This document shows, piece by piece, positions 8,384 through 57,468 of a stretch of DNA of 64,000 nucleotides. The stretch spans positions 1,775,884-1,839,883 of the forward strand of contig CAVUKN010000005.1 of NCBI GenBank assembly GCA_963742105.1. Reading direction: 5' to 3'. Numbering within the stretch: the first letter of the stretch is position 1; every line of letters starts with the position of its first letter. The notes under the pieces are model-generated. The model saw only the letters and a list, made by a program, of their open reading frames with translations. It had not been told where the DNA came from and ran no database searches. This stretch comes from an uncultured Acidobacteriota bacterium. GTDB lineage: Bacteria; Acidobacteriota; Vicinamibacteria; Vicinamibacterales; UBA2999. Made by a program: the position numbers and the translations under genes.

Positions 8384-8553
8384 CATTCTTGAATCGTGAA
8401 TCGTGATTCTTGAATAGGGAATCGGGATTCGGGAATCGGGAATCAGGAATGGTGGCAATCGCGATTTCCTCAGCACCAATCACGAATCAAAATCGCGATT
8501 CACCTAATCACCAATCACCAATCACAAATCAAGAATCAAGAATCACGAATCGC
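8384..8553. repeat. heptad-array element E1 (AATC-core flavour)
   Basis: About 24 consecutive 7-nt units (GAATCGT GAATCGT GATTCTT GAATAGG GAATCGG GATTCGG GAATCGG GAATCAG .. CAATCAC CAATCAC AAATCAA GAATCAA GAATCAC GAATCGC). The outer parts are reverse complements of each other. Palindrome AATCGCGATT occurs at 8457-8466 and 8491-8500. Confidence 0.85.
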
Positions 8554-9947
8554 ATGTCCGTATTTCCCGTTCTCCTGGTCGAAGACAAGGACTCGCTGCG
8601 CGCGATGCTGCGCCATGCGCTCGAGGCGCAGGGGCACCTGGTCGTGGAAGCGTGTGACGAGGCGGAGGCTGTCCAGCAGTTGCGCCAGGCGCGACCGGCG
8701 GTCGTTCTCACGGATCTGAAGCTGCCCACGGGCGATGGCTTCGGCGTTCTTCGCGCCGCCAAGGAGCTCGATCCCGAGCTGCAGGTCATCGTGATGACGG
8801 CGTACGGGAGCATCCAGGATGCGGTGACCGCGATGCGCGAAGGCGCGATGGACTTCCTGGCCAAGCCGGTCGATCCGGATCACCTGCTGCTGATGGTCGA
8901 GCGCGCGATCGCGCAGCGCCGCATGCTGACCGACTACTTCCTCCTGAAGCAGGAGCTGGCCGAGCGGCGCGGGCGCACCGCGGATCATCGGCGAGGACGC
9001 GCAGCTCCGGCAGGTGTCGCAGCAGCTGCATCGCGCGGCGGCGACCGACGCCACCGTCCTGCTGGAAGGTGAGAGCGGAACCGGCAAGGAGCTGTTCGCG
9101 CGGGCGTTGCACGCCTTGAGCCCGCGCGCCGACGGCCCGTTCGTCGCGATCAACTGCGCCGCCATTCCCGACACGCTGCTCGAGACGGAGCTCTTCGGCT
9201 ACGAAAAGGGCGCGTTCACCGGCGCCGTCGACGCGCAAGCCGGGACGCTTCGAGCTGGCGCATCGCGGCACGCTGTTCCTCGACGAGATCGGCGATCTGC
9301 CCCTGGCCCTGCAGGCCAAGATCCTGCGCGCGCTGGAGGAGAAGCGATTCGAACGGGTCGGCGGAACGCAATCGCTCCACGTGGACGTCCGGGTGGTCGC
9401 CGCGACCAACCGCAACCTGAAGCAGCGGGTGGCGGAGCGCCAGTTCCGCGAGGACCTCTACTTCCGGCTGTCGGTCTTTCCGATCCAGATTCCGCCCCTG
9501 CGCGAACGGTCGGATGACGTGGTGATCCTGGCACGTCATTTCGTCGATCGATTCTGCCGCGACATGAACAAGAAGACGCTGGCAGTCGCGCCGGCCGCGA
9601 TCGACGAACTGCGCGCCTACGCCTGGCCCGGAAACGTGCGCGAGCTGCAGAACTGCATCGAGCGGGCGGTCATTCTCTGCGACGGCGACACGATCCACTC
9701 GCGGCACCTCAACCTGTCGTTCCGGCCACCGGTCGCTCCAGTCGCGACGAGTCCGTGGGACCAGATCGACCTGTCTGGAACGATGGCGGACGCGCTCCGG
9801 CGAACCACGGCTGAAGTCGAGCGACGCAAGATCGAACAGGCGCTGCGTGATGCCGCGGGTAACAAGATGCGGGCTGCGGACCTGCTGCAGGTCAGCTACA
9901 AATCACTCCAGCAGAAATTGAAGGATTACGGTTTCGCTGACGCGTGA
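8554..9947 (+). CDS. sigma-54-dependent response regulator (receiver + AAA+ EBP + Fis-type HTH), NtrC/PilR family; two frameshifts near 8965 and 9230
   Basis: Receiver domain: [27 protein letters not shown]+ domain: [77 protein letters not shown]: [25 protein letters not shown]. The pieces lie in ORFs 8410..9072, 9014..9517 and 9381..9947. Confidence 0.85.
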
Positions 9948-10016
9948 ACCTCCTGCTGCTGGCGATGGCGTTCCGGGCGTGGAGCGGGGCCGCGTGTTCG
10001 GTCGTTCCTCCGCGTC

Positions 10017-11368
10017 ATGGCCGCGATTGCCGCCTTCTCGCTCGAAATCCAGATCGCGACCTGGCTGCACATCGGCAACATCCGCTCCGTGCGCCTCATC
10101 AACCTCGCTGCCGCCGCCATCGGCGTGTCGTGGCACGCGTATCGTCGATCGGTCTTCCGCCGGCTCGAGCGCGACAGTGTCGAGACTGAGCAGCCCTTGT
10201 CGCCGCGATCGCCTGACGGGTCACCTGCTTCACGGCCGTTCATTGCTGCACCGGCGGTCACGCTGCCGCCGCTGGCGGCGATTGCCGGGCTGGTGCTGCT
10301 GGTCACGTTGCTGGCGACGATGCGCCCGGTGATGGGAGCAGATCCCGTATCATCTGCAGCGCGTCGATCAGATCACGCGGTCGGGAACTCTGGCCTATGA
10401 CGCCGGCGTCGCGGACGTCAAGGTCAACGCGCTCGCGGGCGTCTACGAACTTCTCCTTGCCGACCTTCGCATTCCAGGTATGAGCTGCGGCGCTGGTGCG
10501 TTTCCACGGCCTGCTCGGCCTCGGGCTGTACCTGCTGTCGATCGCCGCGGTCGCGCCGTGGGCCGGAATCCGCCGGCGCTGGTTTCTGATCACGCTCCTG
10601 GTTGTGCCGGTGGTGTTTCAGCAACTGGTGCTGGTGAAGAACGATCTGTTCGGTGCGTTGCCGGCGTTCGTGGCGCTGGCGTGGGTGGTCACGCGAGGGC
10701 CCGCGCTGTCGCTCGCGGAGTGCACGGCGGCGGCGGCGCTGGCCGGATTTTCGGTCGGCATCAAGATTTCGAGTGCGCCGATCGCGCTGGTCGTCTGTGG
10801 ATTGGTTGCCGCCGACCACCGGAGTTGGACGCGCGTGGCGGCGTCTGTGGCGGCAGCATCGGTCGGCTCGATTGCCGGCGGTCTGCTGTTCACGCTGATC
10901 GAGAACGACCTGGTCTACGGCGCGCCACTTCAGCCCTATCTGTCTCTCGGCAACCGTCACGATTCCATCGGCGACGCCGCGATTGGCCTTGCCCGGTTCG
11001 CCGTATCGCTGGTGGATCTCGGCACCGTCACCCCACGTGTGTGGCCGGGACGCGGCGGGTGGGGAAGCACATTCGGGCTGCCGGTCGTCTGGGCGCTCGC
11101 GGTGCTGGCGCTGCGGTGGCGCGACTGGCAGGCGCGGCGTGCGCTGCTCGCCGCCCTTGCCTGCCTCATCGTGTTTGGTGCGACGTATCCCGATGCCGAC
11201 GTCGCGCACCGGATGGTGATTGCACCGGGACTGCTGCTGATTGTGGTCGCGCTCGGGTGCCTCGACCGGGAGGAGCGATACGCCCGCGGGCTGCGTGCCG
11301 GGTTGATTGCGGTCATCGCGCTGTCGGCCCTGCAGATTGGCCGTAGCGCGTGGTTGTATCTGGGTTGA
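10017..11368 (+). CDS. polytopic integral membrane protein (possibly GT-C-like glycosyltransferase or polymerase); two frameshifts near 10335 and 10480
   Basis: At least 9 hydrophobic segments (e.g. LLGLGLYLLSIAAVAPW, WFLITLLVVPVVFQQLVLV, GALPAFVALAWVV). The middle piece IPYHLQRVDQITRSGTLAYDAGVADVKVNALAGVYELLLADLRIP lies in a third frame. The functional call is weak. Confidence 0.4.
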
Positions 11369-11391
11369 GCGGCGAACGTGGAACGACTCGC

Positions 11392-56514: not shown

Positions 56515-56544
56515 ACGCGAGCCGACAAGCGAGCACCAAGAAGC

Positions 56545-57360
56545 GTGAATATGCCAACGCTGCGTCTGTCCCGCGCCCTGGCGATCATCGAGCGGCAGTT
56601 GTATTTGATGCGGGGCAGTCCCGCGCGTGTCGTTCCCCTGTTCGGCTTCGTCGTCATCGACATCGTCCTGTGGGGCTTCATCACCCGGTATCTCAATACC
56701 GTGGCGACGGGCATGAACTTCGTCACGTCCCTCCTGGGCGCGGTGGTGCTGTGGGACTTTTGCGTCCGCGTGCTCCACGGCGTGACGATGGCGTTTTTCG
56801 AGGATGTGTGGTCGCGGAATTTCCTGAACATCTTCGCCAGCCCGCTGTCGGTCGCGGAGTATCTCGCCGGCCAGGTGGTGTCCAGCATGTTCACCAGCGC
56901 GGTCGGCCTGGTCGCGATGGTGGCGCTGGCGACGCTGGTCTTCGGTGTCCCGTTCGCCGCGTACGGCGTGATGGTGCTGCCGTTCCTGCTGGTGCTGTTC
57001 CTGTTCGGGATTGCGATGGGGATCCTGGGCGCGTCATGCGTGCTGCGCTGGGGTCCGGCGGCGGAGTGGTGGGTGTGGCCGATCCCGGCGATGATCGCGC
57101 CGTTCGCCGGCGTGTTCTATCCCGTCGCGACGCTTCCTGCCTGGATGCACCCGATCGCGCGCATTCTGCCGCCCTCGTACGTGTTCGAAGCGCTGAGGAC
57201 GATCGTCACCGATGGAACCTTCCAGCCCTGGGCGCTTGTCTTCGGCGGTGCGCTCGCCACCGTCTACATCGTGGCCGCGGCCTGGATCTTCACCCGGGTC
57301 CATCGTCACGCCGTGCGCACCGGCCTGATCGCGCGGTACAGCGCCGAAACTATTACCTGA
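56545..57360 (+). CDS. ABC-2 type transporter permease
   Basis: Six TM segments; N-terminal ..RALAIIERQLYLMRGSPARV.. and ..FFEDVWSRNFLNIFASPLS.. are typical of the ABC-2 family. It follows the ATPase gene by 30 nt. Confidence 0.75.
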   Translation: MNMPTLRLSRALAIIERQLYLMRGSPARVVPLFGFVVIDIVLWGFITRYLNTVATGMNFVTSLLGAVVLWDFCVRVLHGVTMAFFEDVWSRNFLNIFASPLSVAEYLAGQVVSSMFTSAVGLVAMVALATLVFGVPFAAYGVMVLPFLLVLFLFGIAMGILGASCVLRWGPAAEWWVWPIPAMIAPFAGVFYPVATLPAWMHPIARILPPSYVFEALRTIVTDGTFQPWALVFGGALATVYIVAAAWIFTRVHRHAVRTGLIARYSAETIT

Positions 57361-57362
57361 AC

Positions 57363-57468
57363 GTGTGTTCACGCTTCTCCGTTCTTCGTTCTCGGTTCGT
57401 GTTCAGGTTCGGTTCCAGAACCGAACGTGAACACGAACGGAGAAGAGAGAACCAAGAAGCGTGAACGG
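57363..57468. repeat. heptad-array hairpin E14 (GTTCGTG-TTCAGGT flavour, shared with the outer arms of E11)
   Basis: GTGTGTTCACGCTTCTCCGTTCTTCGTTCTCGGTTCGTGTTCAGGTTCGGTTCC|AGAACCGAACGTGAACACGAACGGAGAAGAGAGAACCAAGAAGCGTGAACGG. It is nearly palindromic about 57416 and fills the convergent junction 57360/57485. Confidence 0.9.

Follow-up and report, generated by a model that had tools for sequence, protein, structure and literature searches.

A series of intergenic spacers in the stretch of DNA analysed here (the window, 64,000 nucleotides) is occupied by hairpins whose arms are tandem arrays of a seven-nucleotide unit. What are these elements, and how did they come to lie where they do? The host is a soil acidobacterium of the order Vicinamibacterales, and small hairpin-forming DNA repeats are scattered through it and its relatives. 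An earlier note on the window had described them as inverted arms of 7-nt units in several sequence flavours, each copy 3' of some gene, and had suggested as possible roles a bidirectional terminator, a stabiliser of mRNA 3' ends, or a substrate for a protein or recombinase.

Anatomy of the hairpins

The observation of heptad hairpins is confirmed as real, and the enrichment of period 7 is strong and specific. Our periodicity scan of the window found 16 period-7 segments where shuffles gave about 1.2 (7 against 0 at a stricter threshold), and among periods that are not a multiple of 3 none other than 7 was enriched. All sites named earlier fold as long hairpins, with z between -3.5 and -10.1 against dinucleotide shuffles and 0-1 of 200 shuffles equally stable. 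GC content is lower in the elements (41-57%) than in the genome (about 65%). The anatomy given in the earlier note is correct, and TRF reports period-7 arrays at nearly all of its sites, though a strong hairpin of CACGAAG-type units at 39222-39312 (z = -9.12) has period 8-9 instead (TRF period 8; lag-7, lag-8 and lag-9 scores 0.48, 0.54 and 0.52). Its list of sites also lacked an intragenic copy (37302-37410) and an array without a partner (49175-49213).

At the convergent junction of M48-peptidase and cupredoxin genes, a TGATTTG/CAAATCA hairpin (25729-25839; z = -3.5, lag-7 score 0.81) holds the M48 stop codon within its first unit, as a (TGATTTG)4/(CAAATCA)4 hairpin at another convergent junction does with the stop of a DUF4870 gene (48147-48227; z = -7.84, lag-7 0.95, 95% TRF matches). 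An ABC-2 permease gene and a convergent ORF are separated by a near-perfect hairpin of two ~50-nt arms and a 4-nt loop (57363-57468; z = -10.1, MFE -70.9), the type copy of the dispersed GTTC family discussed below. The convergent junction adjoining tatC carries a composite hairpin of the CTCCCAA family with outer and inner stems (16411-16511; z = -3.97). Its architecture is shared, at 74% column identity in the alignment, with copies in the co-directional spacer between an S41 peptidase gene and smc (19401-19485; z = -3.46) and at 31326-31421 (z = -5.95); those at 16411 and 19401 have just 2-3 units per arm segment and a lag-7 score of 0.62. The hairpin at 39222-39312 lies between convergent aspS-like and TIM-barrel genes. 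The weakest member of the set is a composite inverted repeat (11392-11675) with 9-nt arms, GGAGGTGCC / GCACCCCCG, around about 200 nt of internal hairpins. It folds and has TRF period 9 (lag-9 score 0.78 vs lag-7 0.57), and it lies at a convergent junction within the 3' tail of a DHQ-synthase ORF, whose DHQS_C domain ends at about 11823 and whose frame continues to 11395.

Several copies lie within the rimP-nusA-infB-rbfA-DHH-truB operon. The one at 31326-31421 occupies the whole infB-rbfA spacer, a GATTCTT/GATTCGT hairpin (35563-35650; z = -4.73, lag-7 score 0.90) the whole rimP-nusA spacer, and a mini hairpin of 2+2 TAGCTGG units (29909-29937; z = -4.35) overlaps the stop of the DHH gene immediately upstream of truB. 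Among the other co-directional spacers, one is filled by GAATCGT/GGGAATC-type units in the 5' arm and their complement in the 3' arm, ahead of a response-regulator gene that starts at 8554 (8384-8553; TRF period 7 in both arms, lag-7 score 0.90, GC 0.44, MFE -57 kcal/mol); a GAATCGT/ACGATTC hairpin separates DUF1800 and DUF1501 genes (50528-50620; z = -4.77, lag-7 score 0.90). Between APH and TIM-barrel genes lies a nested element (40192-40463, from TRF, folding and alignment of its arms with those at 57363), in which outer arms of the GTTC family enclose (CCTCGGA)5 and (CGAACTT)n arrays; the open frame that crosses it in the window is artefactual or fortuitous, because APH and TIM-barrel are separate genes in relatives. 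The GGCTTCG-type array at 49175-49213, detected by TRF and the periodicity scan in a co-directional spacer, is single, folding having given no convincing partner arm (z = -1.36).

Could such arrays be produced by long-read consensus, assembly or sequencing? Indel errors do occur in the window, for example an extra G at 32260, but the same hairpins appear in many short-read assemblies made independently of one another and from different samples. Those at 31326-31421 and 29909-29937 are identical in six short-read metagenome contigs of independent origin, which match the window at 99.7-99.9% identity, the one at 16411 recurs with 0-1 SNP in eight independent contigs, 3 of which end inside it, and period-7 arrays occur in 53 of 80 related genomes. 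The arrays, which the earlier note had considered as potential assembly artefacts, are genuine; an artefactual origin is refuted by identical hairpins across independent assemblies and keeps practically no probability.

Spread and placement in Vicinamibacterales

The related loci hold 170 period-7 segments, as against 1-8 for periods 5, 10, 11 and 13. An inverted partner is present for 59% of period-7 arrays vs 16-18% for periods 5 and 6, and at 101 of 137 array loci the array pairs with a partner arm on folding. The arrays comprise dozens of unrelated unit sequences, and G and T predominate in the 5' arm of 72 of 95 hairpins.

Among the 80 related loci, which are mutually syntenic so that junction counts among them are not independent, presence at a given junction is sporadic from species to species. 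A hairpin occupies rimP-nusA in 4 of 57; most relatives are without one and have a spacer of 0-20 nt, L012, L026 and L030 holding just GATTCTTGAAAT there and L068 a GATTCTT array. Heptad arrays are found in the DHH-truB spacer of 18 of 72 loci, hairpins of flavours other than the window's at infB-rbfA, and an array in only 2 of 70 truB-rpsO spacers, long as these are.

On a Pfam-supported gene map of the window, 6 of the 7 convergent junctions hold an element, as against none of the 7 divergent ones (Fisher p = 0.005), the tally that the earlier note had given; the seventh convergent junction, between 60144 and 60170, measures 25 nt. The 3'-end bias is real and generalises to an independent, non-syntenic sample of the GTTC family, in which 19 of 63 convergent vs 6 of 60 divergent junctions carry a copy (p = 0.007). 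In relatives, for which gene calls are crude (codon model), the median distance from the upstream stop to the element is about 4.5 nt. The stronger claim that every copy is 3' of a gene fails, both on a conserved copy inside a rimO-type gene and on a few relatives with copies in divergent spacers.

Do the hairpins act as terminators? The absence of T-tracts reported earlier holds, with 1.96 T per 10 nt 3' of the hairpins vs 1.67 expected and a T-run of 4 or more in 5 of 89 tails, and the hairpin+T6 terminator at 36186-36207 proved canonical, on the minus strand. Neither folding stability (sense vs antisense 43:41) nor G·U excess (35:35) is biased towards the sense strand. A classical intrinsic terminator was rejected on the missing T-tract, the copies within an operon and an ORF, and the lack of sense-strand or G·U bias. 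Termination as a general function is unlikely in view of the copies in the operon and the ORF and of the strand evidence, given also that most relatives are without a hairpin at the same junctions.

A dispersed family with conserved ends

By sequence comparison, at least one flavour is a dispersed family with sharp, conserved termini, unrelated flanks and no target-site duplication. The window arms at 40192 and 57363 align over a common non-periodic run of about 22 nt. An exact 22-mer query matched at least 120 metagenome stretches, and three relatives (L059, L047 and L023) carry the GTTC-family arm (about 45-49 nt, 86-90% identity) at sites that are not orthologous. Among the matches listed, the outer flanks are distinct in 123 of 128, the 84 complete copies span 62-440 nt, and 57 of 82 copies have no target-site duplication. 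The outer boundary is sharp, at GTTCAC; from there conservation falls toward the loop (top-base frequency 0.68, 0.58, 0.42, 0.34) and lag-7 periodicity persists, a conserved 4-nt core (GTTC) alternating with 3 variable bases. Adjoining the copies, neither a transposase nor any other recurrent ORF was found, and Pfam scans of the ~64 window ORFs showed no transposase family, so that the RAYT-type partner envisaged in the earlier note did not emerge from either and mobility is argued from the distribution of the copies.

Growth by whole units and a translated copy

Near-identical strains differ in their arrays by whole 7-nt units. In the M48-cupredoxin spacer, such strains, although identical in the flanks, are set apart by exactly one CAAATCA unit on one arm, and the other arm differs by +35 nt; this was the polymorphic one of 4 sites tested.

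The intragenic copy (37302-37410, minus strand; z = -2.9) lies in a rimO-type methylthiotransferase gene with a UPF0004 match, in the linker that joins the UPF0004 domain to the radical-SAM domain, and its arms flank a conserved PLLRSNGEP core. The ORF with the hairpin keeps its frame without interruption in 44 of 51 related loci, all 7 exceptions being MFD MAGs; in all 44 non-MFD-MAG relatives, which are cleanly assembled, the copy is in frame and free of stops, and the products in relatives are single UPF0004-Radical_SAM-TRAM polypeptides. The arms pair, with a unit that differs between species. This copy is translated, as part of a protein linker.

Two observations sit uneasily with dispersal: the rimO-type arms, with their species-specific unit, surround conserved host coding sequence, and the unit of the rimP-nusA array corresponds to the short spacer that other species have there. 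Both sites fit in-situ growth better than insertion.

Which explanation fits best?

The reading that we favour, with somewhat better than even confidence, is that of lineage-wide, non-coding, probably selfish or near-neutral palindromic repeats, REP/REPIN- or RPE-like, with arms made of 7-nt units, that dispersal and slippage have shaped. Whole hairpins would form families with defined outer termini, and their copies would have reached many unrelated sites with no duplication of the target; the leading candidate for the mobiliser would be a Y1/HUH transposase of RAYT/TIRYT type acting on single-stranded hairpins. Replication slippage would add or remove whole 7-nt units, independently in the two arms and mostly loopward, and would therefore leave a hypervariable interior between conserved termini. 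The arms may regain complementarity through template switches inside the palindrome, through the loss of copies that have become unbalanced, or both. Elements would persist where a hairpin is harmless, right after stops in convergent and co-directional spacers that they often fill, with the rimO-type linker as one tolerated site, and would be depleted where promoters would be disrupted, as in divergent spacers and leader regions (truB-rpsO, for example). Transcribed copies would have to fold, with blocking of 3' exonucleases or RNase III cleavage as plausible side effects, and the intergenic copies may have a function. Among the roles suggested earlier, that of recombinase substrate or mobile element fits best, as far as distribution indicates. 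The 7-nt size of the unit and the G/T-rich 5' arm have no account in this explanation.

Selection at gene ends offers a different account, with the hairpins as functional RNA 3'-end elements, U-tract-less bidirectional terminators or attenuators and/or 3'-exonuclease barriers, and the heptads as a route to long stems. REP hairpins of E. coli shield upstream mRNA from 3' exonucleases, and U-tract-less terminators have been proposed for high-GC bacteria; the proximity to stop codons, the enrichment at convergent and depletion at divergent junctions and the very stable stems (z down to -10) agree with such a role. We nevertheless consider it unlikely in view of the absent strand bias and T-tract, the copies at rimP-nusA, infB-rbfA and inside the rimO-type ORF, the sporadic presence per junction among species (as at rimP-nusA), arm lengths that vary freely between strains, and canonical hairpin+T6 terminators in the same organism.

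A purely local origin, in which a short palindromic seed grows by 7-nt slippage and intra-palindrome template switching, would need no mobility, families being due to shared seeds or conversion. The whole-unit polymorphism of the M48-cupredoxin spacer, the rimO-type arms around a host core, the gene's own stop codon often within the first unit, and the short rimP-nusA spacer, which consists of one unit plus a near-palindrome, all speak for it, as does the over-representation of heptamer SSRs, put down to polymerase slippage (Mrazek 2007, as cited in PMC4692102). What it cannot yield is one non-periodic arm sequence of 45-50 nt, sharply bounded on the outside, repeated at over 100 unrelated places and across several species, and this makes it improbable as the general explanation. 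We see very little chance that the hairpins are protein-binding platforms, their 7-nt register being the footprint of an OB-fold/cold-shock-domain monomer or duplex-binding factor that would regulate mRNA fate or DNA topology. CspB does bind heptamer repeats with one protein per unit, as reviewed in PMC4679880, the GTTC core does alternate with 3 variable bases, and the polarity of the G/T-rich 5' arm suggests strand-specific recognition; yet dozens of unrelated units are hard to square with a sequence-specific binder, the strands show no bias with respect to transcription, and no candidate protein was identified.

Relation to known repeats

The closest precedent is found in Xanthomonas campestris and X. 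axonopodis, where 70-75 convergent, stem-loop-capable pairs occur among ~185 GGGAATC arrays (Rehm et al. 2015, PLoS One; PMC4692102). These arrays are 89-93% intergenic, lie 28 nt from the upstream ORF end vs 160 nt to the next start, are depleted between divergent genes, transcribed and length-variable between related species, and have no assigned function (PMC4692102). By description they resemble the elements here as inverted 7-nt arrays that form stem-loops 3' of genes, with few at divergent junctions. In both the G-rich strand points to the centre, and the unit GGGAATC/GGGATTC itself occurs in the window (8410-8452) and in rimO-type linkers. Xanthomonas, however, has essentially one G-rich unit, read as G-quadruplex-forming, whereas here there are dozens, many without G-runs, together with at least one family that has conserved non-periodic termini and a hypervariable interior, and one conserved copy that is translated inside a gene.

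Cyanobacterial STRR (Mazel 1990) and over-represented bacterial heptamer SSRs (Mrazek 2007), both as cited in PMC4692102, are described mainly as direct arrays; together with the TAACTGA repeats of Beggiatoaceae they share with the elements here non-coding tandem 7-nt units, several types per genome and whole-unit length variation, and the GGGGATT unit of one relative (L038) is that reported for Nostoc. The TAACTGA arrays of Beggiatoaceae lie 5' of genes, with one inverted case only (PMC4679880). Unlike in either, the inverted-pair hairpin is the dominant architecture here.

REP/REPIN elements and the palindromic elements of Rickettsia (RPE) are functional analogues. The former (RAYT, Y1/HUH) are likewise short dispersed palindromes, with hairpins of ~60-200 nt (Bertels & Rainey 2011, PMC3116915; Di Nocera et al. 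2013, PMC3733652), and share with the elements here many copies, unrelated flanks, lack of target-site duplication, extragenic location, 3'-end bias and several families per genome. In acidobacteria the TIRYTs form a group of their own, in some cases together with families of TIR repeats (Di Nocera et al. 2013, PMC3733652). REPs have units of 20-40 nt that bear a GTAG or CGTC tag and lack an internal period of 7 nt; in contrast, a weak GTC precedes the GTTC-family terminus and the interiors are slippage-prone arrays. Unlike RAYT-mobilised REPs, the GTTC-family copies had no RAYT/TIRYT found adjoining them. As Ogata and colleagues reportedly described in 2000, RPEs, which PMC3733652 also discusses, can lie in frame within genes and are translated as extra peptides in tolerant regions, much as the rimO-type linker copy is. 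They are said to be inserted whole, at ~100-150 bp and with conserved sequence, whereas the rimO-type arms stand on either side of a conserved host peptide core, with a unit that varies by species.

The novelty claimed for these elements is thus partial, as convergent heptamer hairpins 3' of genes, depleted at divergent junctions, were already known in Xanthomonas (PMC4692102); for Acidobacteriota, no description of such hairpins was found in Rfam or the literature searched. What is new beyond the Xanthomonas precedent is the occurrence of multiple families, with dozens of unit types, in Acidobacteriota.

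Architecture and placement of the heptad hairpins

An earlier note, written from the sequence alone, had described intergenic inverted repeats with arms built from tandem 7-nt units at a series of sites between 8384 and 57468 of the window. All the named sites indeed fold into a long hairpin, with folding z-scores of −3.5 to −10.1 against dinucleotide-preserving shuffles, of which 0–1 in 200 fold as well, and nearly all of them register as period-7 arrays in Tandem Repeats Finder. A lag-matching scan of the window yields 16 period-7 segments versus about 1.2 in shuffles (7 versus 0 at a stricter threshold); periods 4, 5, 8, 10, 11 and 13 lie at background level, and periods 6, 9, 12 and 15 carry the ordinary coding-repeat signal. 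The elements have a GC content of 41–57% in a window of about 65% and are thus AT-richer than the genome.

The inventory itself needed some revision. The element at 39222–39312 is a strong hairpin, but its actual period is 8–9 and not 7; that at 11392–11675 is a composite with 9-nt arms, and those at 16411 and 19401 have merely 2–3 units per arm segment. A hairpin at 37302–37410 and a partnerless heptad-like array at 49175–49213, which lies in a co-directional spacer and forms no hairpin (z = −1.4), had been overlooked. Another partnerless array of this kind is located at 29048–29082, inside the 3′ coding part of truB. Arms of 8-nt (CGCACCCT) and 9-nt units were also observed in the spacers downstream of infB in three relatives (L021, L018 and L011), as well as at 11392–11675 and 39222–39312 of the window.

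With a gene map based on Pfam scans of about 64 ORFs, the junction tally of the earlier note holds: elements occupy six of the seven convergent junctions, the remaining one (60144|60170) being 25 nt long, and none of the seven divergent ones (Fisher p = 0.005 for the comparison). The other copies in the window sit between co-directional genes. Three of them fall within the minus-strand cluster rimP-nusA-infB-rbfA-DHH-truB-rpsO-pnp, namely at 35563 (rimP|nusA), 31326 (infB|rbfA) and 29909 (DHH|truB).

At three sites the stop codon of the upstream gene is contained in the first array unit (CTTGTGA, TTCATGA and TTTTAGA; stops at 25729–25731, 48147–48149 and 35652–35654), so that the array starts precisely where the ORF ends and is in register with its stop. 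As 7 is congruent to 1 modulo 3, a unit containing a stop places stops in all frames, which is the basis for viewing the elements as all-frame stop-codon cassettes. We reject this as a general description, since CTCCCAA, GTTCGTG, CCTCGGA and GGGATTC contain no stop triplet. Many units include GANTC, as GATTC or GAATC (8384–8553, 35563–35650 and 50528–50620, and the rimO-type linkers of relatives discussed below), which is a methylation target of CcrM-type enzymes elsewhere in bacteria. So does GGGAATC of Xanthomonas, and all this may be coincidence. No known RNA family corresponds to the elements: the sole match in the window, with Rfam at gathering thresholds or with ARAGORN, is a tRNA-Leu(CAG) at 61943–62029.

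Independent assemblies and errors in the consensus

Could the arrays be a product of assembly, as the earlier note had considered? Many metagenome contigs from soil and rhizosphere encode an RbfA protein exactly identical to that of the window. Six of these, 99.7–99.9% identical to the window, carry the hairpins at 31326–31421 and 29909–29937 unchanged, and the hairpin at 16411 is present in eight contigs with 0–1 SNP. Three of these eight stop inside the hairpin, as is expected of a dispersed repeat. Because the same hairpins recur identically in independent assemblies, an artefact can be rejected.

The same comparison revealed indel errors in the window consensus. An extra G at 32260, missing from all four overlapping metagenome contigs, splits infB; the radical-SAM CxxxCxxC region of the rimO-type methylthiotransferase gene is frame-broken at about 37215; and several more conserved genes are split across two frames (ORF pairs 8554–9947, 12907–14461, 34318–35554 and 37791–39213). 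ORF extensions and fusions in the window, including ORFs that run through elements, are therefore not trustworthy. An apparent fusion protein of APH and a TIM barrel across 40192–40463 was rejected, as more than 40 relatives have a stop after APH and a separate TIM gene; the open frame in the window is an indel error or chance. The elements disrupt short-read assemblies of these genomes and can yield spurious ORF extensions or fusions in annotation.

A lineage-wide architecture with changing units

The period-7 hairpin architecture is broadly distributed in the lineage. An RbfA search of species-representative genomes provided 80 syntenic loci (L007–L086; 61–88% amino-acid identity), nearly all titled as Vicinamibacterales or Acidobacteria/Acidobacteriota MAGs, whose genes were called with a codon-usage model and whose junction counts, owing to the synteny, are not independent. 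These 1.26 Mb contain 170 period-7 segments distributed over 53 of the 80 loci, as opposed to 1–8 segments for periods 5, 10, 11 and 13, and 31 for period 8. Adjacent arrays are mostly inverted: the inverted-unit distance is at most 1 in 36 of 46 pairs, compared with 8 of 46 when units are matched in direct orientation. An inverted partner is found within 250 nt for 59% of period-7 arrays versus 16–18% for periods 5 and 6, with periods 8 and 9 as minor variants (32–33%). Period 7 is dominant among hairpin arms, not exclusive. Together with a partner arm, 101 of 137 array loci fold into a hairpin, the median element measuring 97 nt with a median MFE of −52 kcal/mol.

The unit sequences number in the dozens, and many are free of G-runs, for example TGATTTG, GATTCTT, GTTCGTG and AAGTTAG. 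At the orthologous infB|rbfA junction, different species carry a CCCAAAT, GATTCGT, AAGTTAG, CAGAATT, GCCGGCT or CTCCCAA hairpin, or none. In most of the related loci a small conserved gene (...VELHIPYAQSLKDKRMVLRR...), presumably DUF503-like, lies between infB and rbfA; it is missing from this interval in the window, where the CTCCCAA hairpin fills the spacer. A second palindrome, non-heptad and GC-rich, is found repeatedly in the infB|rbfA and rimP|nusA spacers of six relatives (L020, L023, L035, L038, L043 and L064); it reads GGCGGGTC(N4-8)GACCCGCC, in many cases with CTACG behind it, and looks like a conventional REP-type family.

Length change in whole units

Polymorphism in steps of whole units is observed directly at the convergent spacer between the M48 and cupredoxin genes (25729–25839), for which eight near-identical contigs from other samples share the same flanks. 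One arm differs by exactly one CAAATCA unit (4/9 sequences, window included), and the opposite arm is longer by 35 nt, or five units, in one contig. As the two differences affect separate arms, the arms vary independently and in unit steps. The remaining three of four sites tested were invariant; their pure arrays are shorter.

The rimP|nusA spacer measures 0–20 nt in most species. In three species it is GATTCTTGAAAT, a single unit joined to a near-palindrome; the array with this unit occurs in L068 and in the window, and the short spacer is either its seed or a collapsed remnant.

A translated copy within the rimO-type gene

The overlooked hairpin at 37302–37410 does not lie in a spacer but within the rimO-type methylthiotransferase gene (minus strand, gene start 37747), in the linker between the UPF0004 domain and the radical-SAM domain. 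Is this copy translated? In 44 of 51 related loci one frame runs without a stop through the N- and C-terminal parts, and these are all 44 loci that do not come from MFD MAGs. In every case (44/44) the linker length is divisible by 3 and the linker is free of stops, and the full ORFs of relatives encode single UPF0004-Radical_SAM-TRAM polypeptides. The seven exceptions are all MFD-labelled MAGs and are treated as consensus errors, which also speaks against phase variation of the gene through 7-nt slippage, for these seven are the only out-of-frame cases. Between two close relatives among these loci, L026 and L012, the difference is 2 nt and not 7, which we read as a sequencing error and again not as phase variation.

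The linkers span 84–420 nt and have a conserved core, (V/I)PLLR(S/A)NGEP, between variable arms. In 25 of the 51 species these arms are heptad arrays that pair with each other, with a unit that varies by species (GGGATTC, GGGGATC, GGGGATT, CCGATGG or GCGGTTC). In one relative (L025:3351-3772) the linker has grown to 420 nt through about eight copies of a 14-residue repeat, in one arm only and in frame; the repeat corresponds to 42 nt, or six heptads. The arrangement of arms with species-specific units around a conserved PLLRSNGEP core suggests, from sequence comparison, in situ turnover rather than repeated insertion.

Terminators, strand symmetry and polarity

The bias towards gene 3′ ends and the depletion between divergent genes bring intrinsic terminators to mind, but the hallmarks of terminators are missing. 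The statement of the earlier note that no T-tract follows the hairpins is borne out: downstream of the 3′ arm the T content is 1.96 per 10 nt, with 1.67 expected, and a T-run of at least 4 occurs in just 5 of 89 tails. The placement of copies at rimP|nusA, infB|rbfA and DHH|truB and inside the rimO-type ORF also does not fit intrinsic terminators, and translation of a hairpin as part of a conserved enzyme is incompatible with that role. A classical terminator was correctly recognized at 36186–36207: in the interval that separates the rimO-type gene from rimP, GTGGGC-TTGC-GCCCAC is followed by T6 in minus-strand orientation. Besides carrying heptad hairpins, the organism thus uses such signals. 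There is also no bias towards one RNA strand. Among 84 hairpins whose direction of transcription is known, stability favours the sense strand in 43 and the antisense strand in 41 (MFE, p = 0.68), and the excess of G·U pairs is split 35:35, which gives no indication that selection acts on one RNA strand in particular.

The palindromes are nevertheless handed. In about 100 hairpins from the window and L007–L086, the 5′ arm is the G/T-rich one in 72 of 95 (p ~5e-7), or in 57 versus 21 when the in-ORF copies, mainly of the rimO-type site, are left aside. This polarity is identical on both strands.

A dispersed family with conserved termini

Same-flavour sites of the window agree in non-periodic detail. 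The three CTCCCAA sites are built alike, from an outer stem, a spacer and an inner stem (74% column identity), and the four arms at 40192 and 57363 have GGTTCGTGTTCAGGTTCGGTTC in common. The latter belong to the GTTC family (outer arms of 40192–40463; type copy at 57363–57468), whose arm appears again at non-orthologous places in three relatives (L059, L047 and L023) with 86–90% identity over 44–49 nt. An exact 22-mer scan of metagenome contigs, in which GTTC is the sole family traced, recovered at least 120 stretches.

GTTC is a dispersed family with conserved termini and no target-site duplication. Of 128 outer flanks among the matches listed, 123 differ from one another. GTTCAC marks a sharp outer boundary of the element, and in the matches listed the bases before this terminus show a weak preference (G54/T43/C48), the top-base frequency drops towards the loop from 0.68 in the outer arm to 0.58, 0.42 and 0.34, and the interior is often expanded into (GGTTCGA)n or (GGTTCGG)n arrays and is still 7-periodic (lag-7 self-match 0.44 versus 0.25–0.30 at lags 5 and 8). 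By junction, copies among these listed matches are co-directional in 63 cases, convergent in 19 and divergent in 6, and they occupy 19 of 63 convergent versus 6 of 60 divergent junctions (p = 0.007).

Origin from a classical MITE, derived from a DDE transposase, was rejected: among the matches listed, 57 of 82 complete copies lack a duplication, the 1–2 nt shown by the others do not amount to a consistent one, and the length of the 84 complete copies is continuous from 62 to 440 nt. An associated transposase was sought as well. Clustering of 1737 ORFs near GTTC arms gave host genes and spurious repeat translations only, no recurrent ORF stands beside the arms among the at least 120 short contigs listed, and Pfam scans of the roughly 64 window ORFs contain no transposase family. 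Viral contigs gave 0 matches to GTTC copies.

Comparison with known repeat systems

The closest precedent is the GGGAATC heptamer of Xanthomonas, with about 185 arrays per genome and 70–75 pairs in 'convergent orientation' that are capable of forming stem-loops (Rehm et al. 2015, PMC4692102). These arrays are 89–93% intergenic, have mean distances of 28 nt to the upstream and 160 nt to the downstream ORF, are depleted between divergent genes, transcribed and variable among species, and their function is not known (PMC4692102). The heptad hairpins share the inverted array pairs with the G-rich strand towards the centre (here 36/46 pairs; 72/95 hairpins), the proximity to the 3′ end of the upstream ORF and the depletion at divergent junctions. 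They differ in having dozens of units, whereas Xanthomonas has one dominant G-tract unit, GGGAATC, with G-quadruplex potential.

Dispersal has its closest mechanistic analogues in REP/REPIN elements and in the TIR families of acidobacterial Y1 transposases (PMC3733652). Like the RAYT-associated REP/REPIN elements, the GTTC family, the one family traced, is a high-copy dispersed palindrome with unrelated flanks, and it is without target-site duplication; unlike their 20–40 nt unit with a terminal GTAG or CGTC tag, the arms here are heptad strings of about 50 nt. Tandem 7-nt units enriched in non-coding DNA and whole-unit copy-number variation between close strains, as at M48|cupredoxin, are features of STRR-type heptanucleotide SSRs. 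Heptamer SSRs are generally over-represented, with polymerase slippage as the proposed cause, according to earlier work as cited in PMC4692102. TAACTGA arrays are direct repeats located 5′ of genes (PMC4679880). The in-frame copies have an analogue in Rickettsia RPEs, palindromic repeats within ORFs that keep the frame, as the rimO-type linker does. Rfam contains no matching family, and a literature search found no description of such elements for Acidobacteriota.

Interpretation and significance

The best-supported reading is that the elements are REP- or RPE-like palindromic repeats whose arms are slippage-prone heptad arrays. They would be mobilized by an enzyme, for which a Y1/HUH transposase is the obvious candidate, and one arm may be corrected against the other through template switching. 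Their placement would be driven by tolerance, and effects on mRNA may be incidental.

A more speculative scenario, to which we give little credence, unites the heptad hairpins of Vicinamibacterales, Xanthomonas and cyanobacteria under one hitherto unrecognized DNA-synthesis process that adds 7-nt units to 3′ ends where these meet at the centre of a palindrome that breaks recurrently. An SbcCD-type nuclease might cut the hairpin tip, followed by slippage-prone or templated, telomerase-like extension. Such a process would account for the inverted symmetry, for the orientation of the G/T-rich strand towards the centre (72/95), for a hypervariable loop-proximal interior between conserved outer ends, and for the telomere-like look of many units (TTGGGGA, TTGGGAG and TTTGTGA). 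If it were true, a dedicated enzyme or a register-reading protein would exist.

Bacterial heptanucleotide repeats have been on record for decades, as cyanobacterial STRRs, as over-represented heptamer SSRs and as the GGGAATC arrays of Xanthomonas; to our knowledge, there is no known mechanism or function for any of them. The Vicinamibacterales, abundant and mostly uncultured soil bacteria, present a much richer system to study them, with many unit types, at least one clearly dispersed family in which conserved ends enclose a hypervariable interior, whole-unit polymorphism that can be measured in natural populations, an inherent polarity, and a conserved enzyme that tolerates a copy in its translated sequence. 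The reason for the 7-nt unit, what moves the elements, and whether they have any function are directly testable in these organisms.
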